Of a DNA stretch of 64,000 bases, positions 7,419 through 46,308 are shown one piece after another (positions within the stretch are counted from its first letter, which is position 1; every line of letters starts with the position of its first letter). Position numbers and translations under genes: made by a program. The stretch covers positions 9,028 through 73,027 of the forward strand of contig CAJOLH010000040.1 of NCBI GenBank assembly GCA_905235375.1. Direction: 5' to 3'. Origin of the DNA: an uncultured Bacteroidales bacterium (GTDB lineage: Bacteria > Bacteroidota > Bacteroidia > Bacteroidales > UBA3663). The notes under the pieces are model-generated. The model did no database searches, was not told where the DNA came from, and saw only the letters and a program-made list of their open reading frames with translations.

Positions 7419-7473
7419 TAATGGGTGGCTTCGGGGGACGGTCAGATCCACATAAAGCCCTTTTATTAATAAC

Positions 7474-10430: not shown

Positions 10431-10432
10431 GG

Positions 10433-15204: not shown

Positions 15205-16585
15205 CTATTTCCTGATGGGGTATTTATAGAGAAGGTAGAGCATGATGAGAATGATGGCAGCAGGGAAGAGCGAGAACAGCGCCCAGATCATTGACCTCAC
15301 CGACTCGATGTCGGAGATGGTGACAACGGTCTGCCCTGTGGCAGGATCGGTGCCCGACACAAAGCCGGAGAAGCCAAGCAGGAGTGCCACAAGGGAGCCG
15401 GAGATGGCTGTGCCGAACTTCTGCGCCATGGTGCCAGAGGAGAAGATGAGGCCTGTGGAAGACGTGCCGTTTTTCTCGGTTGCGTAATCGGCCACATCGG
15501 CATACATCGACCAAAGCAGGGGCGAATAGAGGCCAATGCCTATCGAAGTGAGTATAACGATTGCGATGAGTGCCCAGATGTAGGCAGGATCCTGGGGAAC
15601 GAAGAAGAAGAGTGTGGAGAAGATGGCACAGATGATGGCTGCCACGGTGAAAGCCTTGCGCTTGGATCCCATCCACTGGGTGAACTTGGGCGATAGACCG
15701 CCGAAAATCATACAGGTGACCTCTCCAAAGGTCATGAACACGGTGTAGTTGATGATGAGTCCACTTACGGTGACATCACCATGGAGACAGTATTCCATCA
15801 GATAACCTGCCACGGCATAACGGAAACCATTGAAGAAGTTGGTGCAGATGCCAATGAGGGTGAGGTAGATCCAGGGTTTGTTCTTGAACAGATCGGCGAA
15901 CGGCTTGAACGAGAATTTCTCTGCCCTGACGGGTTTCAGCCTCTCTTTGGTGAGTAGCCCGCAAGCCAATGTGCCTGCAGCAGCGATTATGCCAAAGATG
16001 GCACCGATGACAGCATATTGATGCTGTTTGGCTGCGATGGTATAAGTGCCGTCGGCAGGCAAGTTTTTCACCACCAATCAATTCGATAATGTAGGGGAAT
16101 GTGAACAGCGTGATGAAGCCCATGGCATAGGCTCCGACCATGCGGTAGGAAGAGAACTGGTTCTTCTCGTTGTCATCGTTGGTCATTACGCCGAGCAGCG
16201 AGCCGTAGGGAACGTTGACCGCCGTGTACATGGCCATCATCAGCAGGTAGAGCGAGTAAGCATAGATGCGCTTGCCCACGGGACCAAATTCGGGCGTGAA
16301 GAGCAGCAGGGCGAAGATGAGGCCGAAGGGGATGGCGCCGAAGATGAGCCAGGGGCGATAGGTGCCCCAGCGTGACTGTGTGCGGTCGGCGAGACTGCCC
16401 ATCAGCGGATCGGTAACCACGTCGAACATACGGGCGATGAGCATCAGCGTGGCCGTGTCGGCTACGGTGAGGCCAAATACGTTGGTGAAGAAGAGGGGGA
16501 AGGCGATGGACATGATTTTCCATGTGATGCCGCCAGCCGCTGCATCACCCAGGGCATAGCCGATTTTTTCTTTGAGTGTTGCCAT
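15205..16585 (-). pseudogene. GPH-family (MelB-like) glycoside:cation symporter, split by a frameshift
   Basis: ORF 15776-16585 reads as a good transporter up to ...FPYIIELIGGEK and then becomes nonsense. ORF 15205-16077 resumes as VVKNLPADGTYTIAAKQ... in another frame. The junction is at the T5 run 16064-16068; removing one T restores ...IIELIGGENLPADGTY... Confidence 0.8.
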
Positions 16586-19041: not shown

Positions 19042-21537
19042 TTACATTATAACTTCGACGACGTGTTTGCCTGGGGTCGCCTTGATGACATTGCCCTCAA
19101 TGACCTTGCCATCGACGGTAATGCAGCTGACGCCCTTCTGCTTGCCGTTGGGGTTCTTGAAGGTGATGTCGAATTCGATGCCGCGAAGTATTCGTTTCAC
19201 TTTGTACTCCTTGAGGTCGGCAGGAATGCAGGGGTCAATCTCGATGCCGTCGTAGGTCGGTTTGATGCCGAGGATGAACTGTGTGATGGTGTACCAGTTC
19301 CAGGCGGCAGTGCCCGTCAGCCAGGAGTTTTTGCCTTCACCAGGCTTGGCAGCATCCTTGCCTGCTACCATCTGGCAATAAACGTAAGGTTCGACCTTGT
19401 GCAGTGTTTGGTCTTTGATCCAGGCCGGGCAGATTTTGGTGTAGTGTTCCCAGGCATCGTTGCCACGACCTGCCACGGTTTCACCGATGATGACCCATGG
19501 ATTGTTGTGGCAGAAGATGCCCGCATTCTCCTTGTAGCCGGCAGGGTACGAACTGATTTCGCCCATCTCGACATGATAAGTGGTGTAGGCGGGATTGTTG
19601 AGCACCATGCCGTGTTCGCAGTCGAGGTATTGCTTGCAGGAATCGAGCGCTTTATCAACCATGCCATCTTCAAGGCCGATACCAGCCATGGTGCAGAAGC
19701 CCTGCGATTCGATGAAGATCTTGCCTTCCTCGTTTTCCTTCGAACCTATTTTATTGCCATAGAAGTCGTAGGCGCGCAGATACCATTCGCCATCCCAACC
19801 ATGCTGCTTGACGGCTTCGACCATCTCGTCGATGCATTGCTGTGCACGCTTGGCTTCGTCGAGCGCCTTGCCGCCGATGGCCTGGCAGAGTTCGACGTAT
19901 TGCTTGCCGCAGAAGACGAAGAGACCCGCTATCATCAGCGATTCGGCCTTTGAGCCTTCGGTCTTGTTCTCAGTGGTCTGGAATGACTCGTTGGGATCCC
20001 ATGAGAAGCAGTTGAGGTTAAGACAGTCGTTCCAATCAGCGCGGCCGATAAGGGGCAGACGGTGAGGACCGAGGTTTTCGACCACGTGATTGAACGAGAT
20101 GCGCAGGTGCTCCATCAAGGTGACTTCGGTGCCAGGCTGGTTGTCCCAAGGCACCATTTCGTCGAGGATGCCGAAGTCGCCCGTCTCCTTGATGTAGGCG
20201 ATGGTGCCGAAGATGAGCCACATCGGGTCGTCGTTGAAGCCGCCGCCGATGTCATTGTTGCCGCGTTTGGTGAGCGGCTGGTACTGATGGTAGCAACCGC
20301 CATCGGGGAACTGGGTGGATGCGATGTCGATGATGCGCTGGCGAGCTCGGCTGGGTACCTGATGCACAAAGCCCACCAGATCCTGGTTCGAATCGCGGAA
20401 GCCCATGCCTCGGCCCACACCACTCTCGAAGAACGAAGCCGAGCGTGAGAAGTTGAACGTGATCATACATTGGTATTGGTTCCAGATGTTGACCATTCGG
20501 TCCAGTCGCTCGTCGCCACTCCTGACCACATACTTGTCGAGCAGGTTGTCCCACATCGCACGAAGTTCCTCGAATGCGGCATCGACGGCTTCTGTGGTCG
20601 AGAATCTTTGGATGGTCTCGTGGGCTTTCCGCTTGTTGACCAGCGTCACGTCGTTATCCTGCGAGGTGATGAGTGTGCCGTTCCGTTTGCGTTCGATGTC
20701 CTCCTTCGAGAACTTCTCGTCCTGCTCGTTCTCGACATAGCCAAGCAGGAAGATGAAGTCTTTCGATTCGCCAGGCTGGAGCGTTACTTCGATGTAATGA
20801 CTTGCAATGGGTGACCAGCCATGGGCCAACGAATTTGCGGGACGTCCGGCCATGACGCATTGGGGAGCCTCAAAACCATTATAGAGTCCGACAAACGTTT
20901 CGCGGTCGGTATCGTAGCCTTGCACGGGAACGTTGACCGTGTAGTATGCATAGTGGTTGCGTCGTTCCTTGTATTCAGTCTTGTGGTAAATGGTCGATCC
21001 GTCAATCTCCACTTCGCCCGTTGACCAGTTGCGCTGGAAGTTCTCCATGTCGGTGGCAGCATTCCACAGGCACCATTCTGCCAGCGAGAAGAGTTTGAGA
21101 TGCTTAACTTCGGCACTTTGATTGGTGAGAGTGACCTTCTGCACTTCTGCCCAAGTCTTGAGCGGCACGAAGAAGAGCACGGAGGCCTTCACCCCGTTCT
21201 TCGAGCCGGTGATGCGGGTATAGTTCATGCCATGACGGCACTCGTAGCTGTCGAGGGGAGTCTTGCAGGGTTTCCATCCAGGGTTCCACACCGTGCCTCC
21301 GTCGTTGATGTAGAAGTAGCGTCCTCCATTGTCCATGGGCACACTGTTGTAGCGGTAGCGGGTGATGCGGCGGAACTTGGCATCCTTGTAGAAATTGTAG
21401 CCGCCCGCTGTGTTGGAGATGAGACCGAAGAAATCTTCGTTCCCGAGGTAGTTGATCCAAGGGAATGGTGTTGCGGGGTCGGTGATGACGTACTCGCGGT
21501 TGGTATCATCGAAGTGACCAAACACTTTAGTTTCCAT
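19042..21537 (-). CDS. GH94 cellobiose (beta-1,4-glucan/mannan disaccharide) phosphorylase
   Basis: 831 aa. N-terminus [27 protein letters not shown], then [39 protein letters not shown] and [10 protein letters not shown]. This closely resembles my recollection of cellobiose phosphorylases. Confidence 0.9.
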
Positions 21538-32444: not shown

Positions 32445-32452
32445 TATCTTTG
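32445..32452 (+). promoter_or_regulatory. Candidate -7 box (TATCTTTG) for the CxxCH lipoprotein / glycerate kinase pair
   Basis: Matches TAnnTTTG 22 nt upstream of the ATG at 32474 and overlaps the track's TTG start. Confidence 0.45.
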
Positions 32453-32473
32453 TGCCCGTTAATAATAGAAAGA

Positions 32474-33928
32474 ATGAAAACATTTTCCCTCTTCCTTCTT
32501 GCATCTTTCCTTTTCCTTGCCTCATGCGGCGAGCGTGTCAGCAATGCAACGAATGATGCCTCTTTGCCCGACATTTACCCCGACTATGTGGATGTGACCA
32601 TCCCTGTTGGCATTGCTCCGCTCAACTTCGGCATGAAGAGCGACGATGCGCTGCTGGTCGATGCCGTCATCACGGATGCGAAAGGCCACACGCTGCATGG
32701 CCAGGGTCGTGAGACCACGGGATTCGACCTCGACAACTGGCACCAACTGCTTGCGCAGAATGTAGGCGACTCACTCTCGGTCACCGTCTCTGCCAAGTTT
32801 GCCGATCAGCCTTTCCACTTCTACGTCAGCACCGACAGCATCGACTACGGCCTCTGCTATCGCCTCATCGAACCGGGCTACGAGGTGTGGAGCAAGATGG
32901 GCATCTATCAGCGTAACCTTTCGAACTTCGAGCAGACACCGCTCATCGAGAATACGCAATTCCAGGGCTGTGTCAACTGCCACGGCTTCAACCGTGGCGA
33001 CCCGACGCGCATGAGCCTTCACATCCGTGGAGATCATGGAGCAACCCTGCTGCTCGACGAGGGCAAACTGACGGCCTACAACACCAAGACCGATCGCACC
33101 CTCGGCTTCTGCGTCTATCCCTACTGGCACCCATCGGGCAAATACATCGCCTACAGCGTCAACACCACCCGACAGACTTTCCACAGCCGCAATGCAAACC
33201 GCATCGAGGTGTTCGACACAGCTTCGGATATTCAGGTCTATGACGTCGAGCACAATCAGCTCATCATCACCCCTTCGCTCATGACCGACTCGCTCTACGA
33301 GACCTTCCCCGTCTTTTCAGCCGATGGACGCACTCTCTATTTCTCTGCTGCACATGCCCTTCCCGAGGGAAATATGCAGATCGATTCGGTGCGCTATAGC
33401 CTCTACAGCATCGACTTCGATGCCGACAAGGGGGCTTACGGCTCTTCCATCCGAAGGGTCATCGACCATGGCGACAGCTGCTCGGTCTGTTTCCCCCGTC
33501 CCAGCTACGATGGCCGCTTCTTGGTTTATTCGGTGGCGAACTACGGGCAGTTCAGCATCTGGCATCACGAAGCCGACCTTTGGATGCTCGACCTGCAGAC
33601 TGGGGAGTGTCGCCCGATGGAAGAGATCAATAGTGACGACACCGAAAGCTTCCACAATTGGAGCAGTAATTCGCGCTGGATGGTGTTCAGTTCGCGCCGC
33701 GATGACGGTCTCTTCACCCGTCCCTACTTCACCCACATCGATGCCGAGGGTCACGCTACCAAGCCCTTTATGCTTCCGCAGAAGAATCCTCGCCGCTTCT
33801 ATCGCGAGCTCTTCATGTCGTACAACGTGCCCGATTTCATTCGTGCCCGCGTCGAGTTCGACAACGTGGAGGCCGTCCGTCTTATCAATGCAGACTATCG
33901 CAAGCCGATGGGAGTGGTAGAGAAATGA
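32474..33928 (+). CDS. Lipoprotein with one CxxCH heme c motif and a TolB/PD40-like beta-propeller C-terminal half (paralogue A), function unknown
   Basis: Lipobox LFLASC. CVNCH at 32969-32983. Repeated S(A/P)DG(R/K)xL(Y/V)(F/Y) propeller-type motifs. Clearly paralogous to 37049-38527. Confidence 0.6.
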   Translation: MKTFSLFLLASFLFLASCGERVSNATNDASLPDIYPDYVDVTIPVGIAPLNFGMKSDDALLVDAVITDAKGHTLHGQGRETTGFDLDNWHQLLAQNVGDSLSVTVSAKFADQPFHFYVSTDSIDYGLCYRLIEPGYEVWSKMGIYQRNLSNFEQTPLIENTQFQGCVNCHGFNRGDPTRMSLHIRGDHGATLLLDEGKLTAYNTKTDRTLGFCVYPYWHPSGKYIAYSVNTTRQTFHSRNANRIEVFDTASDIQVYDVEHNQLIITPSLMTDSLYETFPVFSADGRTLYFSAAHALPEGNMQIDSVRYSLYSIDFDADKGAYGSSIRRVIDHGDSCSVCFPRPSYDGRFLVYSVANYGQFSIWHHEADLWMLDLQTGECRPMEEINSDDTESFHNWSSNSRWMVFSSRRDDGLFTRPYFTHIDAEGHATKPFMLPQKNPRRFYRELFMSYNVPDFIRARVEFDNVEAVRLINADYRKPMGVVEK

Positions 33929-33944
33929 TGGAAGTGAGGGAGAA

Positions 33945-35000
33945 ATGAAGGTAATCGTTGCAATAGATTCGTTCAAGGGTTGCATGACTTCGGTCGAAGC
34001 CAATCGGGCGGCGGCTGAGGGCATACGTCAGGTGTGCCCTGATGCGGAAATTGTGCAGGTGCCCGTCAGCGATGGAGGCGAAGGGTTTCTGGAGGCTTTT
34101 CATGCAGCCATCGGAGGAGAACTGATGGCGGTGACTGTCAGCGATCCGCTGATGCGTGAAGTCACGGCAAGGTATCTGTTGAAGGAGGAAACTGCCGTAA
34201 TTGAAATGGCCCAAGCCAGTGGATTGACACTGCTCACGCAGGAAGAGCGCAATCCGATGGTCGCCACAAGCTACGGTACAGGCCAGCTGGTGGTCGATGC
34301 CGTTCGGAAAGGTGCCCGCCACGTCATCGTAGGTCTTGGAGGCAGTGCAACGAGCGATGCGGGCATGGGAATGCTCCGCGCCATTGTCGATGCCTTTGCG
34401 GTGAATGAGCGATGGGAGGACTTCGAGGAACTGAAGGACGTACGTTTCACGATAGCCACCGACGTAAGGAATCCCCTGTGTGGAGAGAATGGGGCTGCCT
34501 TTGTTTTCGCTCCACAAAAGGGTGCAACGCCCGAGATGGTGACCCGATTGGACGAACGGGCAAGAAAGTTCGCCGAAGTCTCTGCCCGCCATTTCGGCTT
34601 CGACCGTTCGCAGATGGAGGGCGCAGGCGCCGCTGGTGGACTTGGCTATGCGTTTCTGCAATACCTTGATGCGTCATGCAAACCGGGAATACAGCTGTTG
34701 CTCGAAACAATCCGTTTCGAGCAACTTGTTCGCGATGCCGATCTTGTCATCACCGGCGAGGGTTCGGCCGATAGGCAGACGCTGATGGGTAAACTTCCCG
34801 TAGGAATCCTCGAGCAATCCCGAAATATCCCTGTCTGCCTGATTGCAGGACGGGTCAGCGACCGCGCCCCGTTGCTACAAGCAGGTTTTTCCAGGGTGGA
34901 ATGTATCAATTCTCCGGATATCGCGCTCGAAGAGGCGATGCGCAAGAATATTGCAACGTTGAATATTGCTAATACTGTGCGCAGAATGTTGGAAGCCTGA
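33945..35000 (+). CDS. glxK: Glycerate kinase
   Basis: 351 aa starting MKVIVAIDSFKGCMTSVEA...VPVSDGGEGFLEAF, with GLGGSATSDAGMG and ITGEGSADRQTLMGK. This is the typical glycerate kinase family pattern. Confidence 0.9.
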   Translation: MKVIVAIDSFKGCMTSVEANRAAAEGIRQVCPDAEIVQVPVSDGGEGFLEAFHAAIGGELMAVTVSDPLMREVTARYLLKEETAVIEMAQASGLTLLTQEERNPMVATSYGTGQLVVDAVRKGARHVIVGLGGSATSDAGMGMLRAIVDAFAVNERWEDFEELKDVRFTIATDVRNPLCGENGAAFVFAPQKGATPEMVTRLDERARKFAEVSARHFGFDRSQMEGAGAAGGLGYAFLQYLDASCKPGIQLLLETIRFEQLVRDADLVITGEGSADRQTLMGKLPVGILEQSRNIPVCLIAGRVSDRAPLLQAGFSRVECINSPDIALEEAMRKNIATLNIANTVRRMLEA

Positions 35001-35059
35001 CCATCAATAGCTGCAAACAGATTCCGTACGCTAAATTTCTATTCCCCGCTGGTATGCGT

Positions 35060-35545
35060 CCAATTTACGATAGTGAATTGGACTCGCACTTTCGGCGCAT
35101 ACCCTTTCTTGGCCAGGATTGGTTATGCTCCCGCAGAAGAATAACCATTTTCAGCCAAGACTGGTCATGCCTCGAACAGATAAAGCACTCTGATGCGCGA
35201 CAGGATGCTTGCTCAGTTCGGAGAATGACCTTTTTCGGCCAGGATTGGTCATGCTGCTATCGGATGAGTCCATTTTACGATAGTGAATTGGACTCGCACT
35301 TTCGGCGCATACCCTTTCTTAGCCAGGATTGGTCATGCTGCTATCGGACGAGTCCATTTTACGTTCGTAAATTGGACTCGCACTTTCGGCGCATACCCTT
35401 TCTTGGTCAGGATTGGTTATGCTCCCGCAGAAGAATGACCATTTTCAGCCAAGATTGGTCATGCCTCGAACAGATGAAGCACTCTGATGCGCGACAGGAT
35501 GCTTTATCCGATTGCGGTATGACCAATCTTGGCCAAAAAAGGGTA
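35060..35545. repeat. Composite nested repeat array: two units of about 150 bp, one partial unit, six direct copies and one inverted copy of a 28-bp ACCnTTTynnRGCCARGAyTGGTyATGC module
   Basis: Units at 35060-35210 and 35353-35504 differ by about 8 mismatches in my manual alignment. Module copies start at 35101, 35144, 35228, 35311, 35395 and 35438, with an inverted copy at 35517-35544. Confidence 0.85.
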
Positions 35546-35558
35546 TCCTTGCGTGTAA

Positions 35559-37052
35559 TTATTGCTTTGCGGACGTCTGACGAGGGGATTTGCTATAGTT
35601 GTTGCGGTTGTCTGTCAGCAGATGGTAGGCCATCAGATATTGATAGGCGAGGTGATTGTCGGGGTTGCTGAGGTAGAGGTTTTGGAGCAGGTCCGGCGTC
35701 ACGTGGTCGCCGAAGAAAAAGTCATCTTTGCACGCCATCTGGCGCAGGCGCCCGTATTCGGGATGGCTGGCTATGGCCTGCTCGTCGCCCAGCAATTGTA
35801 GAGTTTCGTTCGCCCATTCACGATAGAAGAGCGTCTTTTGCAGCGCCAGGAGGTATTTGCGTGCCACTTCGTAGCTTCCGCCAATCAGATTGGTCTGTGC
35901 GAGCCGTTTGTAGCATCTGCCGCTCTTTTGGAAGTCGAGGATCGCCTCCTGCGCTTCGAACACCGTCCGCTGCGCCATGGCAATCATGCCCAGCTGATAG
36001 TATGCTTCGGCTGTGGGCAGAGGACTGGTGGCATCGCGTTTGACATCGGGCAGCAACCCTGCGAGGCCATTCTGATGATAATCGAACAGGTGGTCGATGA
36101 GCTTGCCGTGCATCGCCAGGGCAAGGTTCTGCACCGTCACGCCAATCTGATTGTTGGGCTTTTCGGTGCTGATGGTCTGAAGGATGCGGTTCCATTGCTG
36201 GTGACATGCCATGAAGTCGTATTTCATCACCCGTTCTGCCTTGAAATTGCTGTTGCGCCACACGAGGCATCCCATACAGATAGCCACAACCACCCACGAG
36301 ACATGGGGAATGAGTGACGAGGAAGCATTGTCCCGACTATGGCTGAAGTGCCCTAAGAGCGCAATGACGATGACCGACAGGGCGGCAGCCCATAGCATGG
36401 TTGCAACTTCCGTAGGGAAGCGATGATAATGTATGCCGACCCATAAACGATCGACAGGAACAGGGAGAAAGCGTGGCAGTAAGGCAAGCATGACGGCAAG
36501 CAGTGCGAACGGAGCGAAATAGGCGAGCGAGCGCTCGGGGTGCGGTGACTGCAGGAGAAGGAATACCACGCTGACGGGTCCCGCCGCCCAATAGAGCACA
36601 GGCACGGCAACAAGGAGCAGCACGCGTCGCATCCCGCCGTCAGGCAGCTTGTCGAAACCCCACGAGGCGAGCAGCGTGAGCAACATTGCCCAAACGCCAC
36701 CCAACAGCGCATTCTCGTCAAGCAGAAAGAGCCAGAGCAGCAACGAGGGCATAAAGCTCAGACCATACAGCCGTCCCCACCCGACCAATCGGAGTGTCAG
36801 CAGCTGCACCAGCGAGAGCAGCACCCCAATGATAGTGGCGCCCACCCAGGCAAAAAGGAAGAACTGCGTGCAGAAGCGACCGAGCAGGTCGGCTATGCTG
36901 CCTGGCAAGCGGATGATGTCCCAAACGTAGGTGCTGTCGAAGAGGAAAAGCTGGAACTGCTCCTGATAATGCAGATGATGCGGATAGGCGAGTCCGAAGA
37001 AGAGGACAACTGCCACTCCGAAAAGGAGGGTGTAAAGGAATGAAGGTTTCAT
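35559..37052 (-). CDS. Polytopic membrane protein with a C-terminal helical (TPR-like) domain, paralogue B (DUF6057-like, from memory and unverified)
   Basis: 497 aa with about 8 N-terminal TM helices and a soluble alpha-helical C-terminal half (…LFYREWA…YLMAYHLL). Paralogous to 38540-40285. 4-nt overlap with the upstream gene. Confidence 0.55.
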   Translation of the reverse strand: MKPSFLYTLLFGVAVVLFFGLAYPHHLHYQEQFQLFLFDSTYVWDIIRLPGSIADLLGRFCTQFFLFAWVGATIIGVLLSLVQLLTLRLVGWGRLYGLSFMPSLLLWLFLLDENALLGGVWAMLLTLLASWGFDKLPDGGMRRVLLLVAVPVLYWAAGPVSVVFLLLQSPHPERSLAYFAPFALLAVMLALLPRFLPVPVDRLWVGIHYHRFPTEVATMLWAAALSVIVIALLGHFSHSRDNASSSLIPHVSWVVVAICMGCLVWRNSNFKAERVMKYDFMACHQQWNRILQTISTEKPNNQIGVTVQNLALAMHGKLIDHLFDYHQNGLAGLLPDVKRDATSPLPTAEAYYQLGMIAMAQRTVFEAQEAILDFQKSGRCYKRLAQTNLIGGSYEVARKYLLALQKTLFYREWANETLQLLGDEQAIASHPEYGRLRQMACKDDFFFGDHVTPDLLQNLYLSNPDNHLAYQYLMAYHLLTDNRNNYSKSPRQTSAKQ

Positions 37053-38527
37053 TGGAGTACCTGACTAAATTCTTTGATGCTGATGCGGACGGGTTCGATC
37101 ATGAACTCCGGACGGTTGTAGCACTTCAGACGGAAGGTGTCGGATTCGGGATCTTCCTGCGGCAAAAGGAAGGCTTTCGCGGCTTTTCCATCCTTGAAAT
37201 AGGAGAAATAGACATGGGTGAAGTTGCCATCTCCTCGGCGGCTGGAACACATGATCCAATGTCCGTTGCTCGACCAGGTGGGGTAGCTTTCGGCAAACCC
37301 TTCGCTGTTCAGGTTGGTGAGATCGACTGACGGAAGCGCCTGCCCGTCGAGCGGCATACAGGCAATGTCGCCATCGCTATGCCGGATGTGGAAACATCCA
37401 TACTGCCCTTGGGCGAAGAGCAGATAGCGGCCGTCGGGACTGACGCGAGGCAATGTTGCGCTCTTGTCATGCGAGGCAGCATCATAGACGAGCTCTTCGT
37501 CGCCAAAGCTGTGCGTTGCCAAGTCGAACGGACGGCGATAGAGGTTGTATTGCACTTTCCGGTAGGTTGATATGATATCCTTGTCGCGTAACTCCTCGGG
37601 AAGTGGGACGGTCTTGCAGTAATAGAGATATTTGCCATCGGGTGACCATGTGGGATACACCTCTAAAAGGGTGGAATCGTTGCTGATGATGCTCACCGAG
37701 TCGGTTGCCACGTCGTAGAGGATCAGGTCGCTGGCAAGGTCGAAGACCTCAATCTTGTTGGGATGTGCCGTATGGAATGCCTGCCGCGTCATGCAGGCTG
37801 CAAAGGCTACCAGCTTGGCAGTAGGATGCCATGCCGGATAAGCTCCGGCGGAGATGGTATAGTCGCGTTTCAAATCAACTTTCGAGACCTTGCCATCGTT
37901 CACAATTACCGTGCCACCATTGGAGAGGCGCACGTGGAAGAGCATATTATCAGTCTTGTAGTTCTGATAGCTGTGGCAGTTGATGCACTGGCCTTTGGCC
38001 CTGTCGTCGCAGGCAATCTCGTTGTTGAAGACCTGTGTCTCGTCGAACGAGGTGAGGTTGCGCTGGGCAATCTCCATGAACGACCATCCTGCATACGACG
38101 GCTCGATGAGGCGATAGGTCAGATATTCGTCGATAGGCTCCTGGGCCACAAGTATCTCGAACGGGTTGAACGATAGCCATTCGCCCTTCGTCTTCCCCCA
38201 GACTTCCACCCTGAGGCTCTTGCCCTTCGAGAGGTTGAGCATGGCGTGCCATTCGGCCTCGGGTATCTGCACCTTTACGCCGTCGCCATAGGTCTGCTGC
38301 CTGCCATCGGGCAGAGTGAAACGTGCCACACACTCCTCGAAATCTCCTGCGGGGAGCATGAAGTTGAGAGGCGCGATGTTGCAGGGCACGGTGACATTGC
38401 AGTAATCGGGGTAGATGGCTGGCAGACATTCAGCCTCGTGGCTTGAGGCCGGCACATCGGGATGATGCGTACATGAGGACAAGAACAGCAGGGCAGCAGC
38501 CAGCAGCAGGAATCGGGGAAAAGTCAT
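37049..38527 (-). CDS. Lipoprotein with one CxxCH heme c motif and a TolB/PD40-like beta-propeller (paralogue B), function unknown
   Basis: Lipobox LFLSSC. CINCH at 37973-37987 (complement). Shares LPxIYPDYxxVTxPxxIAPLNF, YRLIEPxY, QRNLxxF, NxIEVFDxASD and WSSNxxWxxxSSRRxDGxFT with paralogue A. Confidence 0.6.
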   Translation of the reverse strand: MTFPRFLLLAAALLFLSSCTHHPDVPASSHEAECLPAIYPDYCNVTVPCNIAPLNFMLPAGDFEECVARFTLPDGRQQTYGDGVKVQIPEAEWHAMLNLSKGKSLRVEVWGKTKGEWLSFNPFEILVAQEPIDEYLTYRLIEPSYAGWSFMEIAQRNLTSFDETQVFNNEIACDDRAKGQCINCHSYQNYKTDNMLFHVRLSNGGTVIVNDGKVSKVDLKRDYTISAGAYPAWHPTAKLVAFAACMTRQAFHTAHPNKIEVFDLASDLILYDVATDSVSIISNDSTLLEVYPTWSPDGKYLYYCKTVPLPEELRDKDIISTYRKVQYNLYRRPFDLATHSFGDEELVYDAASHDKSATLPRVSPDGRYLLFAQGQYGCFHIRHSDGDIACMPLDGQALPSVDLTNLNSEGFAESYPTWSSNGHWIMCSSRRGDGNFTHVYFSYFKDGKAAKAFLLPQEDPESDTFRLKCYNRPEFMIEPVRISIKEFSQVLQ

Positions 38528-38539
38528 GGTGATGAGGTA

Positions 38540-40285
38540 TTAATAGATTTTTCTGCCGAAGATGTTGTACCACCAGTAGGTGCCGCCCCAATCTTCACGC
38601 ATTGTTTCGCCAATCTTATCCAGTTGCTGGTTCGACCTTGCCTGTCGCTCCAGGGTCTCCCAGAACTGTTTGTAGCGCTCGTAAACCGCCTGTTCGACGG
38701 GGAGCATGAGCCGTTTCTCTTCCGGCGACTTGTCCATGAACATGATATAAGCCTCCTGTGCATGCAAGGGGAATTTCCCGTCGGGGTGCAGTCTCACATA
38801 TTTGCGCAGCGATTGCCAGAAGCGTCGGGAGTCGCGGCGCATCATGGCATAGAACAGTGCCTGTTCGGAGGCAACCTTGCTGTCGGATTCGTACCAGAGG
38901 CTGATGCTGTTGACAATATAACTGTCGCTGTTCTCCGTGCCGGTAAGTTCGTCGGGGAAGGAGTGTTGCAGTTCCTGTACCGTTTCGGAGACTGGTGCTG
39001 GTTGCCAATCCCCGTAGAACAGATGATGATGGAGCAGGGTGTTATAGCGTTCCTCCAGTTTCACGTCACCAGAGGCGTGGGCACAGCGGGAGAGCATCTT
39101 CAGGTAGAAGGGGGAGAACCCTGTTCGAATGGCATTTTCGTAAGCCAGACGGATGGCTTCATTCATCATGCCATAGTTGTAATATACCAGAGGCGATGCG
39201 ATGTTCAGGAGTCTGACATGGAGCGAATCGGGGGTGTTGACCTCTCCACCGTTGTTGCCTAACTTGAACGAACGTTCGAGCAGTCCACCTTCGTTCATCA
39301 TGGCAATGTTCCTGAGCATGACCATCGTGACGGTTGGTTTCGGCGTGTCTGCTGCCACATGAAGGACACGCTCCCAGTCGTCGTCGGCAGCATAGCGCAC
39401 CATGCGCATCTCGTCGATGTAGTTCCGATCCTGGAACATGAGGGACATGGTGAAAATGATGCCGGCGGCAGCACATATCATCGGAACAAACCATCGGGAA
39501 AGATACCTGCTGCACAGCGGAATGAGCACCGAGACTGCTGCAAGCACCTGGAACGGGATGGAGAGATGAGTGCCGGAGTCATGAGCCGTTGCGAAACGAG
39601 GCCAGCCCGCCAGCATGACATCTTCGGCGTTCAGACCAGAATATAGAAGCACCCGCCAGATGTGAGCGGCAAAGATGAGCAGGATGATGCCCAGCAGTTC
39701 CCGCCAGGTCGGTTTCCCCAAAAGGGCAAGACACAGCACGAAGAGCATGGCAAACCAACCAAGCACGGGATAGGCGCAGAAGGCAAGCAGATACCAGACA
39801 AGATGCCACCGCCGTGGGGTGCAGCGTGCCGCCCACAGGCACAGCAGCATGACCAGATAGCCCAACGACTGGGAGAACCAATAGCCGGCAAACGGGGAAA
39901 TATAGATTCGATAGCCGACCTCGACAACCGATGCGAGCAGACAGGCAACCGGCAGGAGCATCAGGGCAGAGGCTTCGCCCTGGAGCTGGAATGCCTTTGT
40001 GCCCGCAAGGAAGATGAGGGTCCAGAGACCCATCAGCACCAATGCACCTAAGGCTGGATAATAGAACAACTGGGTGATCCAGGCTCCAGCATATTGCATC
40101 AGGCCAAAGGGCTTCGAAACAAGCGTATGGAAATAGGACGCTCCGATGAAGAATTCAGAACGGTCGTGTGCCGTGTAGAGCACCTCCTGATTTATATATA
40201 ATATGTATATGACAAATGCAATGAAAGCCAATAGACTTACATTGAGAATGACCGCAGCTGCCTTGTTTCTCGGATTCACTTCCAT
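38540..40285 (-). CDS. Polytopic membrane protein with a C-terminal helical domain, paralogue A (DUF6057-like, unverified)
   Basis: About 581 aa from the ATG (MEVNPRNK; the track uses a TTG at 40291). It has N-terminal TM helices and shares the ...PGxxxxxxGxxxTQxF... and ...LFYxxW... motifs with 35559-37052. Confidence 0.55.
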   Translation of the reverse strand: MEVNPRNKAAAVILNVSLLAFIAFVIYILYINQEVLYTAHDRSEFFIGASYFHTLVSKPFGLMQYAGAWITQLFYYPALGALVLMGLWTLIFLAGTKAFQLQGEASALMLLPVACLLASVVEVGYRIYISPFAGYWFSQSLGYLVMLLCLWAARCTPRRWHLVWYLLAFCAYPVLGWFAMLFVLCLALLGKPTWRELLGIILLIFAAHIWRVLLYSGLNAEDVMLAGWPRFATAHDSGTHLSIPFQVLAAVSVLIPLCSRYLSRWFVPMICAAAGIIFTMSLMFQDRNYIDEMRMVRYAADDDWERVLHVAADTPKPTVTMVMLRNIAMMNEGGLLERSFKLGNNGGEVNTPDSLHVRLLNIASPLVYYNYGMMNEAIRLAYENAIRTGFSPFYLKMLSRCAHASGDVKLEERYNTLLHHHLFYGDWQPAPVSETVQELQHSFPDELTGTENSDSYIVNSISLWYESDSKVASEQALFYAMMRRDSRRFWQSLRKYVRLHPDGKFPLHAQEAYIMFMDKSPEEKRLMLPVEQAVYERYKQFWETLERQARSNQQLDKIGETMREDWGGTYWWYNIFGRKIY

Positions 40286-40296
40286 ACTCAAAAAGC

Positions 40297-40356: not shown

Positions 40357-41082
40357 TTATTCCTCATAGTAAACACTGGTGAAGGATGCTTCACCGTTGG
40401 TGAGCAGAAGGTTCAAGTCACGACCTTCACCGCCGTTGCCTCGGGCGCAATCCTTGGCAATCTGCTCGGTGATTTGCACCTCCCACTTCATGCCTGAAGT
40501 CAAGGGGATATTGTCCTCATAAGTGGTGCTCCACCAGCCGTTCATGATGCGGGCAGTGCAGCCCTCGCTGGCTTCCTTGACGTCAACGATGAGGGTCTTC
40601 AGGCCGAAATAGACTTCGTCGGAGAGGTAGGGGAAGTTCTTGCCCTCGTTGTCGCTGAAGCGCAGAGGTGCTGCATCCCATGAGCCGACGGAGAACTCAC
40701 CTTCCCAGATGATGTACTTCGTGAGCGGATTGGTGATCTCCTGACAACTAACAGGGTAGTTGGCCTCAAGCAGGGTGCCGTCAGCACAAAGTGCTCTCAA
40801 GGTAACGGTATGATCACCAAGCTTCAGCTTCTTCCAGTAATAATTGTTGGCAACAATCTTTCCTTCATCACCATCGACAAACCAGGCGGCATTGACGGGT
40901 GCAGAGGTCGTACAAGTGATGACGTTGCCATTCACTCCACTGGCAGCCTTGTCAGTAGTGACAGTAGTCATAGCCTTGAGCTCGTCAAGAGAGATGTGAC
41001 CGTCATTGCTGATATCCTCCTCAACGGAATCACAGGCAACAAACGCACACATAATGGCGATAAATAAAAATATCTTTTTCAT
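40357..41082 (-). CDS. Small surface lipoprotein (SGBP position; Ig-like N-terminus plus Trp-rich CBM-like C-terminus)
   Basis: Lipobox CAFVAC. The C-terminal half (IIWEGEFSVGSWDAAPLRF...IMNGWWSTTYE...) resembles the C-terminal modules of the 785-aa SGBP in PUL 1. Confidence 0.55.
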   Translation of the reverse strand: MKKIFLFIAIMCAFVACDSVEEDISNDGHISLDELKAMTTVTTDKAASGVNGNVITCTTSAPVNAAWFVDGDEGKIVANNYYWKKLKLGDHTVTLRALCADGTLLEANYPVSCQEITNPLTKYIIWEGEFSVGSWDAAPLRFSDNEGKNFPYLSDEVYFGLKTLIVDVKEASEGCTARIMNGWWSTTYEDNIPLTSGMKWEVQITEQIAKDCARGNGGEGRDLNLLLTNGEASFTSVYYEE

Positions 41083-41100: not shown

Positions 41101-43002
41101 TTAATTGTAAAGATCCACATATTGAGTTTCCGGGTTAGCTGCGTCCCAACCAGGGTTCTGCTCAAGATTACCATTCATCAGGGTAATCTGTGACTGAGGC
41201 TTAGCCAAGAAACCATTGGTCTCGGCATATCGCTTAGCCCATGAGCAAGTCATGTGCCTCATAGAGACCTTGTTTGCAGTATTGCCCTTGACGACAATCT
41301 GCTTGCCGGCCTGTGCCTGAAGAGCCCTGGCAGCGTATGAATCCTCACCGGAGTCTTTACCCGACCAGCGACGCATATCGTTGAAACGAAGTCCCTCGAA
41401 TGCAAACTCCCAGCGGCGCTCGTCCTGAACGGCCTTCAGAGAGTACGGTGTCAGAGGAACGCCGGCACGAGCCTGAACCTGGTTCATGTAGGAAGCATCG
41501 CCCGTAAGCTCGGTCAGCATCAGCAGCACATCAGCATAGCGCATCAGGTAGAAATCCTCAAAGTGGCATCCCTGCATGGAATTTCCAAGAGTGCCTCCCG
41601 AATTGAAATCAGGATTGACAGCCTCCCACCAGGGTGTGTCACCTGTCAGCGCATCAAGCGTGACACCGTTCCACTTCTTTACGCCATAGCCGGACTCCTC
41701 ACAGTCGTCCTTTACGTAAGAGTATTCTGTAAGTTCATTCTCACAGTCAATCAAGGAACCAAGTTTGCGGATGTCGGTGTAGCCGCCAGTGACCTCTGCA
41801 TTGGTCCAGTCGTCCCAGATGTTGCACGAAGGAGTGCCCTGGCCCCAGCCCTGGGTGAACGGATAGGTGTAGTCACGATTACCGTTGTTGCCGTTTACAC
41901 GGAGAGCCCACCAGCACGAAAGATAGTTGCAATACATACGTGCAGTGGAATAGGTTCCACCAATATTCCAATTGGAAGCATTCATGAACTGGATCTGGAA
42001 GAGCTCCTCATCGTTGCCGTTGCCCATGCCGGGCTGGTCGAAGCAGTTCTCTCGCTTCATGTCGGCGATGAAGTCGTAGGCATGGCCTGTGCCGTTGCCG
42101 GTAGCATCCTCATTGTCGTGAGCCTCATCCCAGAGCAGACTGTTGGAGTACTGCCAGAGTGAACGGTAGTCTTCAAGAAGTTTGTAGGCACCGCTGGAAA
42201 CGACCTCCTTCAGACCAGCGACAACATCTGACTGGGAAAGAGACCCCGAGCAACCCTCCTGCTCAACGAGTTCGATGGCAGGGCCAGAACCGCCGGCAAG
42301 TTCACCAGCCTTCTTGTAGAAGCCAGCCCAGAACATATAGGCACGGGCAAGGAAAGCCTCGGCAACATACTTGTTGGCATGGCCTGAATTCTTCTCACCG
42401 CTCATGAGGTTCTTGCCAGATACTAAGTCGGAAAGGATCTGAGGATAAATAACATCCTCGGCACTGACCTGCTTCTTCATCTCCTCGGTAATGAGGGTGG
42501 AAGTGATCAGGGGCACATCGCCATACAGCTGAGTGAGCCAGAGCGTGTAGAGACCACGCATGAAATAACCCTCGCCGAGAAGCTGGTTGCGCTTCGACTC
42601 ATTGCCTTTCCAATCCACATTGTCGATGGTCTCAATCTGGTTGTTGGCACGGTTGATACCACCATAGAGCAGTATGAAGGGCATTTCGAACTGGTTAGTA
42701 CTCATCTCAACAAGATGGTGCAAAGCCTTCACCTTGTTGTCCTGCAGACCACCACTGCCGTAGCAGTTGTCGGACATGACTTCCCACCAATAGAAAGGAT
42801 GCTGCGTATCGGCATCTCCACCACCCATGGTATTCATGATACTGTAGGTTGCAGTATTCAATGCCTCCACATCTCCAATCTTGCCAGGGAATGTGGCTTG
42901 AGTGGCATCGGTAACGCGCGGATCGGTGTCCAGCATGTCATCGCAGGATGTAAATATTGCTGCTGAACAAACAACAACTGCTGATAAAATATATTTTTTC
43001 AT
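41101..43002 (-). CDS. SusD/RagB-family lipoprotein (PUL 2)
   Basis: Preferred start MKKYILSAVVVCSAAIFTSCDD (ATG 43002). SusD-like pattern. Downstream of SusC. Confidence 0.9.
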   Translation of the reverse strand: MKKYILSAVVVCSAAIFTSCDDMLDTDPRVTDATQATFPGKIGDVEALNTATYSIMNTMGGGDADTQHPFYWWEVMSDNCYGSGGLQDNKVKALHHLVEMSTNQFEMPFILLYGGINRANNQIETIDNVDWKGNESKRNQLLGEGYFMRGLYTLWLTQLYGDVPLITSTLITEEMKKQVSAEDVIYPQILSDLVSGKNLMSGEKNSGHANKYVAEAFLARAYMFWAGFYKKAGELAGGSGPAIELVEQEGCSGSLSQSDVVAGLKEVVSSGAYKLLEDYRSLWQYSNSLLWDEAHDNEDATGNGTGHAYDFIADMKRENCFDQPGMGNGNDEELFQIQFMNASNWNIGGTYSTARMYCNYLSCWWALRVNGNNGNRDYTYPFTQGWGQGTPSCNIWDDWTNAEVTGGYTDIRKLGSLIDCENELTEYSYVKDDCEESGYGVKKWNGVTLDALTGDTPWWEAVNPDFNSGGTLGNSMQGCHFEDFYLMRYADVLLMLTELTGDASYMNQVQARAGVPLTPYSLKAVQDERRWEFAFEGLRFNDMRRWSGKDSGEDSYAARALQAQAGKQIVVKGNTANKVSMRHMTCSWAKRYAETNGFLAKPQSQITLMNGNLEQNPGWDAANPETQYVDLYN

Positions 43003-43030
43003 AATTATCAATTATCAATTATCAATGGTC
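43003..43030. repeat. Heptamer array (AATTATC x3 plus AATGGTC) filling the SusC-SusD spacer
   Basis: The sense (minus) strand reads ...GATAATTGATAATTGATAATT and abuts the SusD ATG. Confidence 0.85.
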
Positions 43031-43032: not shown

Positions 43033-46000
43033 TTAAAACTTGATACTTGCACCAACCAGGTATGTACGTGACGGTGGGTAAAGACCCAGGTCGATTCCAG
43101 AAGCCCATCCTTCGGCACCTGCGGCATTGCCTACCTCAGGGTCGAGGCCAGTATAGCCGGTGAATGTATAGAGGTTCTGAGCCTGAACGTAGAAGCGGAG
43201 CTGCTGCAATGGGCAGGACTTCCAGATCTTCTTGAAGTCGTAACCGAATGTAACGGTCTTGATCTTGAAGTAGTCGGCATCCTCCATGTAGCGGGTAGAA
43301 ACATAGTTGGTATTGGGGTGACCAGTACCCGAGATACGTGGAACGTCGTTCGAGGTGCCTTCACCATGCCAACGATCAAAGATCGTGGTATCGTAGTTGT
43401 GCCACCAGGAATCACTGTAAGAACGGTAAGAACGCATGATCTGCATACCAAATGCACCTGCACCGTTGACAGCGAAATCGAAGCCCTTCCAAGAACATCC
43501 GAGGTTGATACCCAGGGTTACATCGGGGTTAGGATTACCAATCTCATGACGGTCGGTAAGGTCGCCTTCAGCGTAGGTAATCACACCATCACCATTCCAG
43601 TCGTCCCAGATGCAGTCACCAGGCTGTGCGCCATCGAGCACGGCCTTGCCAGCTGCTTTTGCAGCATCAATCTCGGCCTGGTTCTGCCAGATACCACTGT
43701 AAGACATGCCGAAGAAGTAGCCAATGGGCTTGCCCTCCTGGGCACGGTAGATATACTCTGTACCCTGTGAGAGGATACTGGGACTACCATTGATATAGCC
43801 ATTTTCGTTGGCAATACGTGTAACCTCGTTCTTATTGGTAGCAAGGTTCACACCGATGTTGTAATGGAAGTCCTTGCCAACCTGGTCGTTCCAGGTGAGA
43901 GCAATTTCCACACCCTTGTTCTCAACGTCACCGCCATTGATGTAAGCAGGGTTGGTACCCTCGATGGCAATACGCGGGGCAACAATAAGCCAGTCCTTGG
44001 TGGTCTTCTTATACCAGTCGAAGTTCAAGCCCAAACGGCTGTCGAGGAAACGTGCATCGAAACCGAAGTCAAGCTGCTCGGAAGTCTCCCATGTTACATC
44101 AGGATTAGGCACGATGTTAGCGTAAGCACCGACATTGGGCTTGCCGGTCAAAGTGAAGTCCATGCTGTCGCTGAACTTATAGCCGCTATCACCTGCACTG
44201 CCCGACTGGGCAATGGTAGCCAGATACTGGTACTTGGCAATACGGTTGTTACCGTTCTGGCCCCAGGAAGCACGGATCTTGAAGAAGTCGAGCCAGCTGC
44301 TGGTGCTCTCCATGAACGACTCATTGGAAACTACCCAACCGGCAGATACAGAGGGGAAGGAGCCCCAACGATTACCCTCGGAGAAGATGCTCGAACCGTC
44401 GTAACGCATGGTAAAGGTGGCCATATAGGTTTCTTTCCAGTCCCAAGTCACACGACCGAACCAGGATGCCAGATACTCATCGTCATTGGGGTAGCCATCA
44501 AGAGAAGCATTGCTGAGGTCGGTGCTGAAATTGCGCAGCCATGCCGAATTCCAATCCTTGAGAGTAGCATACTGCGACCCCTCATTAACATTGTTGGAAC
44601 CACTGAGGTTGGTACTCCAGCCAGAGCTCTGGAAAGTCTGACCGACCATCGCGCTGATCTTATGACCACTGATAATAGGAAGGTCGTAGGTAAGCGTATT
44701 CTCAATGGAGTAGTTGGTGCTCAACCAAGTGCTCTGGCTGACACTATATGTTGAAACAGTGCCTGAACCAGAAGAGGGAGAACGTGGCTCTCCGAAGCTG
44801 CGATAGGCACCAGAGCTCCAGTTGAAGTTGAACTGACTGCGGAATCTCAGGCCCTTGATAGGCTGGATAACCAAGAAAGCAGTAGCACTGGTGTTGATGT
44901 TGCGGCTTTCGGCCATGGAGTTGAAGCCACCCTTTGAGAGACCCTCGTAGGGATTGTTGAACCAATAGTCGTTCCACTTGGTGCCAGGAATAGGATTACC
45001 GGCCTCGTCATACAGTTCACCATAATTAACATGGTTATAAAGCTCACCATTGTCATCATAAATAGGTACGAGCGGGTTCGTCTGGAGCAGACTGTGGATA
45101 TAGCTCCAGTACATGCCGTCCTCAGCCAGGTCGTGGTTCTTGTTGTAGCCGATAGAGATGTTCTCACCGATGGTGATGGCATCGAAGTCCTTCACTTTCA
45201 GAAGCACGTGATCGCTGTTGATGCGGATAGTATGGCGCTTGTAGTAAGATGCCTGATCAGCACCCATGATGCCTTCATTGCCGGTATAGGTATAGGACAA
45301 TGCAAACTTTGAACGATCGGAACCACCGGTCATGGTCACAGAATGATTCTGCTGCAAGGCATTGTCGTTCTCGAATTCACCCCACCAGTCAGTGCCTTCC
45401 CAACCGTTGGCAACACGATTAAGAATGTACTGCGGAACATAATCCGAGAAGTTGACCTTCTGGCCAGAAGTGTTAAAGCTGTACTCATCCATAATGGTCA
45501 GATACTGCTGGGCATTCAGCATCTGTGGGCGCTTGTAAACGTTAGACCAGCCGAAGACACCGTTGTAGCTGAGCTCAATCTTTCCAGCCTTGCCCTGCTT
45601 CGTGGTTACGAGGATCACACCGTTGGCAGCACGAGAACCGTAGATGGCTGCAGAGGCAGCGTCCTTCAGCACGTCGATCGACTCGATATCGTTCGGGTTG
45701 ATGCCGTCGAGGTTGCCGCCAGCCACACCGTCGATTACATACAGAGGCTGAGAGTCACCGATGGTGCCGACACCACGGATGAAAACCTTGTAGCCCTTGC
45801 CAGGCTGCGACGACGACTGGGTGATCTGCACACCGGGAGTGCTCGACTGCATGGCTTCGAGTGCGTTGGTGGTGTTCAGCTTGGAGATGTCATCACCCTT
45901 AACCTGAACGGTGGCACCTGTCACCAGCTTCTTCTTCATGGTACCGTAACCGATGACAACCACATCCTCGAGTGACTGACTGTCCTCGTGAAGGGTGATG

Positions 46001-46308
46001 GTCATGTTGGGAGCGGCCTTGACAGAAACGGATACGTAGCCGATGAAGCTGATCTCAAGCTCAGAGCCAGCGGGTGTATCCAATGAGAACTTGCCGTCGA
46101 TGTCGGTGACGGCACCATTTGTAGTACCTTTGACGCGAATGTTGGCGCCGATAACGGGGTCGCCAAACTCGTCAACTACAGTACCGGTAATCTTCTGGTT
46201 TTGTGCTTCCACAGTTTGCATCAAACTTGGAGCTACGAAACCAGGAGCACCACTAATAAGCAACATGGTTAGACCAGCTGCAAGCCAAGTGTTTCTTGTT
46301 TTGCTCAT
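43033..46308 (-). CDS. SusC-family TonB-dependent transporter (PUL 2)
   Basis: 1091 aa with a signal peptide, a carboxypeptidase-regulatory-like domain (ITGTVVDEFGDPVIGANIRVKGTTNG), a plug and C-terminal ...YLVGASIKF. Confidence 0.9.
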   Translation of the reverse strand: MSKTRNTWLAAGLTMLLISGAPGFVAPSLMQTVEAQNQKITGTVVDEFGDPVIGANIRVKGTTNGAVTDIDGKFSLDTPAGSELEISFIGYVSVSVKAAPNMTITLHEDSQSLEDVVVIGYGTMKKKLVTGATVQVKGDDISKLNTTNALEAMQSSTPGVQITQSSSQPGKGYKVFIRGVGTIGDSQPLYVIDGVAGGNLDGINPNDIESIDVLKDAASAAIYGSRAANGVILVTTKQGKAGKIELSYNGVFGWSNVYKRPQMLNAQQYLTIMDEYSFNTSGQKVNFSDYVPQYILNRVANGWEGTDWWGEFENDNALQQNHSVTMTGGSDRSKFALSYTYTGNEGIMGADQASYYKRHTIRINSDHVLLKVKDFDAITIGENISIGYNKNHDLAEDGMYWSYIHSLLQTNPLVPIYDDNGELYNHVNYGELYDEAGNPIPGTKWNDYWFNNPYEGLSKGGFNSMAESRNINTSATAFLVIQPIKGLRFRSQFNFNWSSGAYRSFGEPRSPSSGSGTVSTYSVSQSTWLSTNYSIENTLTYDLPIISGHKISAMVGQTFQSSGWSTNLSGSNNVNEGSQYATLKDWNSAWLRNFSTDLSNASLDGYPNDDEYLASWFGRVTWDWKETYMATFTMRYDGSSIFSEGNRWGSFPSVSAGWVVSNESFMESTSSWLDFFKIRASWGQNGNNRIAKYQYLATIAQSGSAGDSGYKFSDSMDFTLTGKPNVGAYANIVPNPDVTWETSEQLDFGFDARFLDSRLGLNFDWYKKTTKDWLIVAPRIAIEGTNPAYINGGDVENKGVEIALTWNDQVGKDFHYNIGVNLATNKNEVTRIANENGYINGSPSILSQGTEYIYRAQEGKPIGYFFGMSYSGIWQNQAEIDAAKAAGKAVLDGAQPGDCIWDDWNGDGVITYAEGDLTDRHEIGNPNPDVTLGINLGCSWKGFDFAVNGAGAFGMQIMRSYRSYSDSWWHNYDTTIFDRWHGEGTSNDVPRISGTGHPNTNYVSTRYMEDADYFKIKTVTFGYDFKKIWKSCPLQQLRFYVQAQNLYTFTGYTGLDPEVGNAAGAEGWASGIDLGLYPPSRTYLVGASIKF

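Follow-up and report, generated by a model that had tools for sequence, protein, structure and literature searches.

Conserved pairing of CxNCH-bearing, TolB-like propeller lipoproteins with DUF6057 membrane proteins in an uncultured Bacteroidales bacterium and related loci

The window analyzed here, a stretch of 64,000 nucleotides (nt) from an uncultured Bacteroidales bacterium (UBA3663; GenBank assembly GCA_905235375.1, contig CAJOLH010000040.1, positions 9,028 to 73,027 of the forward strand), carries two genes, copy A (HP_A) and copy B (HP_B), encoding lipoproteins that combine a TolB-like β-propeller with a single CxNCH motif, a candidate attachment site for c-type haem. Their constant partner is an inner-membrane protein of the family DUF6057, and not the mannan-degrading neighbour genes to which the original prediction had tied them. 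We propose, as a reading that we hold to be evenly poised between right and wrong, that the propellers are periplasmic mono-haem c proteins, matured by System II (Ccs), which would act one-to-one with DUF6057 at the periplasmic and inner-membrane stage of a TonB-dependent uptake. The family is abundant in dominant gut and rumen genera, nameless beyond "PD40 domain-containing protein" and without literature, and the DUF6057–propeller pair with its six-residue candidate site defines a testable unit. If the haem is real, the propellers would be a widespread new client for the System II of largely fermentative anaerobes, with a cytochrome architecture that no solved structure shows, and would give a first functional handle on DUF6057.

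A propeller family and its partner DUF6057

The two propellers, their motifs and their cognate DUF6057 partners are located as follows.

32474–33928, plus strand: copy A, 484 amino acids (aa), with a lipoprotein signal peptide (Cys18), a TolB-like N-terminal domain (~aa 30–120) and a six-bladed PD40 propeller (~aa 125–460)
32969–32983, plus strand: CVNCH of copy A, candidate haem c site (aa 166–170 from the ATG; aa 174 in the 492-aa numbering)
35559–37052, minus strand: DUF6057-2, 497 aa (Pfam PF19529, E 7e-139), cognate partner of copy A in other Prevotella
37049–38527, minus strand: copy B, 492 aa, paralogue of copy A with the same architecture
37973–37987, minus strand: CINCH of copy B (aa 181–185), aligned with the motif of copy A
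38540–40291, minus strand: DUF6057-1, 583 aa (Pfam PF19529, E 1.5e-67), cognate upstream partner of copy B

Copies A and B are paralogues, with 36% identity over 465 aa (BLASTP, E 2e-86) and a lipobox in each. Both open reading frames (ORFs) exist as originally predicted from the ORF list and translations. That of copy A is 492 aa long when read from a TTG at 32450 (32450–33928) and 484 aa when read from the ATG at 32474, which is the likely start and gives MKTFSLFLLASFLFLASC. All the motifs said to be shared by the two proteins were found, and in register: the lipobox (LFLASC/LFLSSC), LPxIYPDY..VT.P..IAPLNF, YRLIEPxY, QRNLxxF, YPxWHP, NxIEVFDxASD, WSSN..W...SSRR.DG.FT and KxFxLPQ. The PD40-like repeats correspond to Pfam matches in both copies (PF07676, 42 and 53 bits against a gathering cutoff of 20.9), and each copy has one CxNCH at the aligned position (residues 174 and 181 in the 492-aa numbering).

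That the proteins belong to no characterised family, as first supposed, was confirmed: searches of Pfam, NCBIfam and PDB sequences returned similarity at the PD40/TolB level only, with no model covering the family, and a literature search gave nothing relevant on either DUF6057 or the propellers. For those homologues that carry a name, it is "PD40 domain-containing protein", "Tol biopolymer transport system component" or "hypothetical". The precomputed labels "Tricorn_N/Tricorn_2nd" turned out to be weak or faint propeller matches and not a family assignment. The family is nevertheless large, with at least 6,880 homologous 90%-identity clusters for copy A and at least 7,432 for copy B, 628 clusters at 50% identity retrieved at E ≤ 1e-30 by a family profile from 1.84 billion cluster representatives, and one orthologue found on more than 300 contigs. 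Gut and rumen genera carrying it include Prevotella/Segatella, Parabacteroides, Rikenellaceae/Alistipes and Dysgonomonas.

Conservation of the CxNCH motif is far beyond chance. Exactly one copy of it occurs, in the same alignment column, in 240 of 240 close homologues, and it occupies this column in 147 of 150 divergent members, 27–52% identical to A or B, which are the best-scoring representatives of the 50%-identity clusters from the profile search. In an alignment of 133 sequences (numbered as in copy A), R130, C166, C169, H170, R185, G285 and W402 are invariant, while N168, H183, Y215, W218, H219 and the N-terminal PDY..P..IAP..F segment are conserved in at least 90%; a residue tally of family members gives 89% for H183. 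The three motif-less members (P0342, P0357 and P0382) have also lost Y215 (3/3), H183 (2/3) and R185 (2/3), and two of them are the sole exceptions to R185 among 140 sequences; all three retain H219, R130, R147, R409 and K430, and look like cofactor-less paralogues. Because they are lost together in these members, C166, C169, H170, H183, R185 and Y215 appear to form one functional site, and its composition of two Cys, two His, one Arg and one Tyr would suit a haem pocket that includes propionate-binding residues.

The partner of the propellers is equally well defined. Both DUF6057 proteins of the window match PF19529 over their full length (464.7 and 229.3 bits versus a gathering cutoff of 29.8), and copy B is sandwiched between their genes, 12 nt from the stop of DUF6057-1 and overlapping the start of DUF6057-2 by 4 nt. 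DUF6057-1 consists of a polytopic N-terminal half, with hydrophobic segments, and a C-terminal half of helical repeats resembling tetratricopeptide repeats (TPR). In the membrane half Q74 is the sole invariant polar residue, and E42 is nearly invariant. We surveyed 82 distinct related loci from Prevotella/Segatella, Bacteroidaceae, Parabacteroides, Rikenellaceae/Alistipes, Dysgonomonas, Proteiniphilum, Draconibacterium, Prolixibacteraceae and Alloprevotella. Of these loci, 79 contain DUF6057, the total of 124 DUF6057 genes nearly equals that of the propeller genes (125), and 97 adjacent pairs are co-directional with DUF6057 preceding the propeller, as many as three pairs being arrayed in one locus. 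In four of the 150 representatives the two proteins are fused, the helical C-terminal domain of DUF6057 running straight into the "PDY..VTIP..IAPLNF" segment of the propeller. Since the junction contains neither a signal peptide nor a transmembrane segment, the fusions are genuine and the C-terminal domain of DUF6057 is periplasmic.

The pair is also a unit of inheritance. Identity matrices of adjacent partners correlate with r = 0.845, as compared to a mean of 0.376 and a maximum of 0.405 when partners are swapped within loci, i.e., with the species held constant. To our knowledge, DUF6057 is annotated only as being of "unknown function"; its obligatory pairing with CxNCH propellers and its periplasmic helical domain are new here.

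The TolB-like fold of the propeller, part of the original prediction, was borne out by modelling. AlphaFold2, run on the 133-sequence alignment, gave for copy A a model of high confidence (predicted local distance difference test, pLDDT, 95.3; predicted template-modelling score, pTM, 0.93), whose strand pattern shows a signal peptide, an α/β N-terminal domain (~30–120) and six four-stranded blades (~125–460). In a Foldseek search of the PDB, TolB came first (9a2l, 2hqs and 6pnv; E 3e-15 to 4e-12, template-modelling score 0.42–0.48), followed by propellers of S9 peptidases and by cytochrome cd1 nitrite reductase, the latter matched at E 3e-7 through its propeller only. According to the secondary-structure string of the model, CxNCH lies in strand 166–173, where it occupies the inner-strand position taken by "PxWSPDG"-type sequences in the later blades (YPYWHPSG, FPVFSADG, PRPSYDG, WSSN). 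The motif would thus open the inner strand of blade 2, where the blade meets the central channel.

The cellular location of the propellers was read from their N-termini and from the fusions. The lipobox Cys is found in 92% of 140 aligned members. In Bacteroidota, an acidic stretch after the lipid-anchor Cys is the signal for surface export. Among 98 lipobox-bearing representatives, only five show at least two acidic residues among the five that come next after this Cys, and the corresponding residues of A and B (C-GERVS and C-THHPD) do not form an acidic export stretch either. As this signal is absent and as, in the fusions, the propeller continues DUF6057 at its periplasmic end, the family is periplasmic, and the surface exposure that had been considered as an option is unlikely.

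A SusCD-type operon around the pairs

Upstream of DUF6057-1, the window contains the genes of an outer-membrane importer and two further genes of the locus.

40357–41082, minus strand: 241-aa lipoprotein (X241), family unassigned, with the acidic surface-export signal C-DSVEEDISND
41101–43011, minus strand: SusD-like lipoprotein (Pfam SusD_RagB, SusD-like_3), in the same position in related loci
43033–46308, minus strand: SusC-like TonB-dependent transporter (Pfam Plug, CarbopepD_reg_2; TIGR04056, 886 bits), at the head of the locus
46623–47774, minus strand: 383-aa protein with a C-terminal Rid/L-PSP domain (Pfam); its NCBIfam match to FkbO/Hyg5 chorismatase (E 1.8e-11) is far under the cutoff

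In Prevotella, the genes follow the order SusC-SusD-(~240-aa lipoprotein)-DUF6057-B-DUF6057-A, all on one strand and with 4-nt overlaps between consecutive genes; this canonical order was seen in ten surveyed loci (L001–L008, L010, L011). The SusC/SusD couple of the window, which had been taken for part of a second polysaccharide utilization locus (PUL 2), would be the family's own dedicated transporter. The 241-aa lipoprotein, for which neither Pfam nor NCBIfam gave a match, is kept after SusD in Prevotella and has homologues in L001, L005, L009–L011 and L047. Outside the lineage of the window it is replaced by DUF4369 and a ~500-aa lipoprotein with an internal duplication, and loci titled Prevotella, Bacteroidaceae and Rikenellaceae show the order SusC-SusD-(~500-aa lipoprotein)-(DUF4369 or X241)-(DUF6057-propeller), the last element being repeated two to three times. 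The location of this second lipoprotein can be given in the same form.

Between SusD and the first DUF6057, in L013, L016, L023, L026, L028, L030–L032, L037, L038, L040, L043, L047 and L086: ~500-aa lipoprotein, covered by no Pfam family

We considered whether it might be a divergent propeller, which was rejected on comparison.

Apart from the pairs, and from ornithine carbamoyltransferase and dehydrogenase genes whose joint recurrence near the family looks like plain synteny, the only families recurring across the 82 loci are SusC (30), SusD (30), the ~500-aa lipoprotein following SusD (16), DUF4369 (21) and the chorismatase-like Rid/L-PSP protein, found in ten loci besides the window (L023, L024, L026, L028, L043, L051, L052, L054, L059 and L081; titled Dysgonomonas, Proteiniphilum, Rikenellaceae, Prevotella and others). 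This last neighbour might point to a cargo or cofactor that is aromatic or derived from chorismate. The loci that bear SusC/SusD are mostly those with multi-pair arrays.

Haem, partner and possible role

Several lines of evidence favour a haem at the CxNCH site: the exact CxxCH is kept in 98% of members, the propeller carries a Sec signal peptide with a lipobox, and R185 and Y215 vary together with the motif, as residues that bind the propionates should do. Exported chains with a CxxCH receive their haem from System II lyases, and in Bacteroides thetaiotaomicron six cytochromes c are matured by this route (PMC13645880; PMC8112865). The window itself encodes two sets of Ccs genes.

7474–9522, plus strand: fused CcsBA (ResB/Cytochrom_C_asm; Pfam, TIGR03144), a System II synthase
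9630–10430, minus strand: CcsA of a separate ResB/CcsA pair (Pfam), with no cytochrome gene beside it
10433–11647, minus strand: ResB of the same pair (Pfam)

The presence of the fused CcsBA means that the organism can attach haem to an exported CxxCH. Taking these points together with those that speak against a haem, we give covalent haem on CxNCH somewhat better than an even chance.

The mechanism that we envisage would run as follows. After Sec export, the propeller lipoprotein would receive one c-type haem on CxNCH from System II, with H183, R185 and Y215 completing the haem pocket, and each propeller would dock one-to-one on the DUF6057 encoded just upstream. In Prevotella, where two pairs share one operon with SusC, SusD and a surface lipoprotein, this ensemble would serve the uptake of an unspecified cargo, which the haem propeller might bind or redox-process on the DUF6057 platform once the TonB-dependent transporter has brought it in. 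Cargos or steps could then be divided among the paralogous pairs.

A number of observations weigh against this proposal. No cytochrome c family and no haem-protein structure was matched in Pfam, NCBIfam or PDB searches by sequence and by fold. In classical haem c proteins the site is a helical turn, whereas a regular strand puts the two Cys on opposite faces; the confident placement of CxNCH in β-strand 166–173 by AlphaFold2 is therefore the main structural argument against haem. Nor is there a strictly conserved distal ligand among the candidates (H183 89%, M180 40%, H219 94%). No Ccs or DHOR gene occurs within ~10 kb of the matched gene in the 82 other loci, so that the presence of Ccs genes in the window is not evidence of linkage. 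As for the partner, the AlphaFold2 model of DUF6057 is all-helical with a pLDDT of 66, probably reflecting a shallow alignment, and found no significant Foldseek match, only weak TPR/PPR-like ones; the correlated partner trees could also owe their agreement to joint duplication of the two genes and not to physical contact. Finally, a recognisable SusD lies within 4.5 kb upstream in only 8 of the 29 single-pair loci with enough upstream sequence, and import may for this reason not be the core function.

The alternative that best survives keeps the pairing with DUF6057 and reads CxNCH differently, as a metal site (Zn, Fe or Cu) or a redox thiol pair formed by C166, C169 and H170 together with H183. 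The strand placement, the missing cytochrome fold or family and the missing invariant distal ligand all speak for it, as do the loss of H183 along with the motif and the hairpin register suggested by the model, in which C166 would face H183 and C169 would face M180. Yet a C-x-x-C-H with the His directly after the second Cys, maintained in members down to 27% identity, is the signature of haem c, and where a cell possesses System II, its lyase should accept an exported CxxCH as substrate (PMC13645880). Moreover, residues i and i+4 of an extended strand are too far apart to chelate one ion, and the co-variation of R185 and Y215 suits a propionate more than a metal. We consider a metal or thiol site unlikely, though a serious contender, and judge the wider alternative built on it in the same way.

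Cytochrome cd1 nitrite reductase (NirS) is the closest known parallel for a periplasmic protein that joins a β-propeller to a CxxCH. NirS, however, carries its haem c in a distinct α-helical cytochrome domain, and its propeller is eight-bladed and holds haem d1. The present family has no such cytochrome domain, and in our model the motif would be part of a blade strand.

Another alternative, slightly less probable again, is that the pair is a module for envelope biogenesis or maintenance, either Tol-Pal-like or composed of a TPR-bearing membrane transferase and its periplasmic partner or substrate, its position behind SusC/SusD being secondary. Besides the 21 single-pair loci without a recognisable SusD in the upstream interval given above, it finds support in Parabacteroides distasonis, where a lone pair lies among housekeeping genes (cmk, ispH, pfk, then the pair, then meaB), between pfk and meaB. 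The polytopic and periplasmic TPR-like halves of DUF6057 also bring to mind TPR-bearing membrane glycosyltransferases, a resemblance that we take as a lead only. However, no GT-C or other transferase fold was retrieved with DUF6057, even at E < 10, and Q74 is the one invariant polar residue of its membrane half, with E42 nearly so. In addition, several families preserve the arrangement SusC-SusD-lipoprotein(s)-pairs, in which neighbouring genes overlap or lie close together.

The TolB fold itself would fit such a module. Like TolB, the propellers are periplasmic and consist of an N-terminal α/β domain and a six-bladed PD40 propeller, and TolB is their best structural match, over ~390–430 columns. 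But identity is only 12–14%, the equivalog model TIGR02800 scores 23.1 and 30.0 bits versus a cutoff of 343, and TolB lacks the lipid anchor, the CxNCH and the PDY..VTIP..IAPLNF segment that characterise the family. The propellers are encoded with DUF6057 and not with tolQRA or pal: neither tolQ, tolR or tolA nor pal is adjacent or among the recurrent neighbours in the 82 loci.

For the uptake that we propose, the nearest analogies within the phylum are XusABC (BT2063-65), which imports xenosiderophores, and BtuB-BtuG, which imports vitamin B12. Both combine a TonB-dependent transporter with a propeller lipoprotein for a non-glycan cargo, and Xus also includes an inner-membrane protein. They differ in that XusB (DUF4374) and BtuG are surface-exposed and without CxxCH and that the inner-membrane partner of Xus is a PepSY protein, whereas the family described here is periplasmic, has CxNCH and is partnered by DUF6057. 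The family showed no sequence relationship to Xus or BtuG, and no characterised system is close to it in working. More tentatively, and with the balance tilting against it, one may go further and see in the propellers a new class of cytochrome c, with the haem on a TolB-like blade strand, that would form with DUF6057 a previously unrecognised periplasmic redox or transport module, multi-copy, widespread (including Segatella copri) and fed by its own SusCD-type importer.

DUF6057 might also be a dedicated maturation factor for the propeller instead of its working partner, e.g., a haem lyase or chaperone comparable to NrfEFG or CcmI with its TPR. Strict adjacency, the TPR-like periplasmic domain and the unusual structural context of the haem motif could be explained in this way. 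We find it improbable, because the presence of one DUF6057 per paralogue and the stable fusions argue for a stoichiometric complex, DUF6057 is without an invariant His or a Trp-rich haem-handling motif, and propellers that have lost the motif still exist.

Two observations concern the haem-related genes of the window in their own right. The ResB/CcsA pair (9630–11647, minus strand) follows immediately on the GH36 gene, the last of the mannan PUL described below and likewise on the minus strand; its client is not evident in the window, and the CxNCH propellers are candidates. The fused CcsBA belongs to a group of genes (3123–9522) that further comprises a weakly porin-like 452-aa protein, an imelysin (peptidase M75) and a di-haem "thiol oxidoreductase" (DHOR). 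A cluster of the same gene content in B. thetaiotaomicron (BT2473-BT2482) is induced 60- to 320-fold by iron starvation (PMC10434189), and the group in the window probably serves under iron limitation too, with a haem lyase of its own.

Copy A beside the mannan locus

The original prediction had described each propeller as attached to a mannan-type Sus locus and had linked both to glycan import. PUL 1 is convincingly a β-mannan locus, with two GH26, a GH130, a GH36, a GH94, an epimerase, a transporter of the MFS type, a surface glycan-binding protein (SGBP), SusD and SusC. Copy A is indeed transcribed divergently from this SusC in the window, and the spacer of 219 bp reported between them holds if SusC starts at an internal ATG (MTKSFDMRAL...). 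In other Prevotella, A is the last gene of the series SusC-SusD-X-DUF6057-B-DUF6057-A. Its divergent place next to PUL 1 was found only in the window and in L009, a metagenome-assembled genome of a rumen Prevotellaceae with 88% identity and identical gene order.

Judging from gene order, copy A came to lie beside the mannan PUL most simply by an inversion that put it, together with glycerate kinase, on the opposite strand: reversing the block 32474–35000 gives back the canonical succession of DUF6057-2 and A. Two elements mark this block and its presumed junction.

33945–35000, plus strand: glycerate kinase (Pfam, TIGR00045), 16 nt downstream of copy A
35058–35550, no strand: non-coding repeat array of ~490 nt, with 84/42-nt repeats in direct and inverted copies, core ~TCTTGGCCAGGATTGGTCATGCT

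Glycerate kinase follows copy A as originally reported; among the surveyed loci it adjoins the family in L009 alone. It is no constant neighbour and seems to have moved along with A in the rearrangement. Glycerate kinase and DUF6057-2 run towards each other, and the repeat array lies between their 3' ends, at the presumed inversion junction; it may be an element of the miniature inverted-repeat transposable (MITE) or repetitive extragenic palindromic (REP) type. It also yields a spurious ORF of 205 aa (35054–35671). In its rearranged position copy A has sequences of its own that resemble promoter elements of the Bacteroidetes type, a TTTG at 32421 and TATCTTTG at 32445–32452, 22 nt before the ATG.

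That the propellers are accessories of mannan-type PULs, as redox partners, sensors or scaffolds for glycan import, is the least probable of the readings, and very improbable: the divergent position of A next to the SusC of a β-mannan PUL is explained by the rearrangement of a canonical operon, and the GH5 and SASA esterase genes found, with AraC genes, further upstream of the SusC/SusD that precede copy B are not conserved with them across the surveyed loci. No carbohydrate-active enzyme (CAZyme) family, including GH26, GH130 and GH5, recurs with the pairs in the 82 loci, GH43 occurring in a handful of them with no fixed position, and pairs occur with no Sus genes at all, as in P. distasonis. 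Recognising DUF6057, which had not been mentioned before, as the conserved partner corrects a tempting mis-annotation of the propellers as mannan PUL accessories.

PUL 1 shows two further peculiarities. Its MFS_2 transporter is split (15205–16585, minus strand) into two overlapping ORFs in different frames, 15776–16585 corresponding to profile positions 1–163 and 15205–16077 to positions 166–426; either a frameshift has made it a pseudogene or the assembly is in error here. Between the two GH26 genes lies a GH94 phosphorylase of the cellobiose/chitobiose-phosphorylase type (19042–21537, minus strand), an unusual companion to GH130 and the epimerase.

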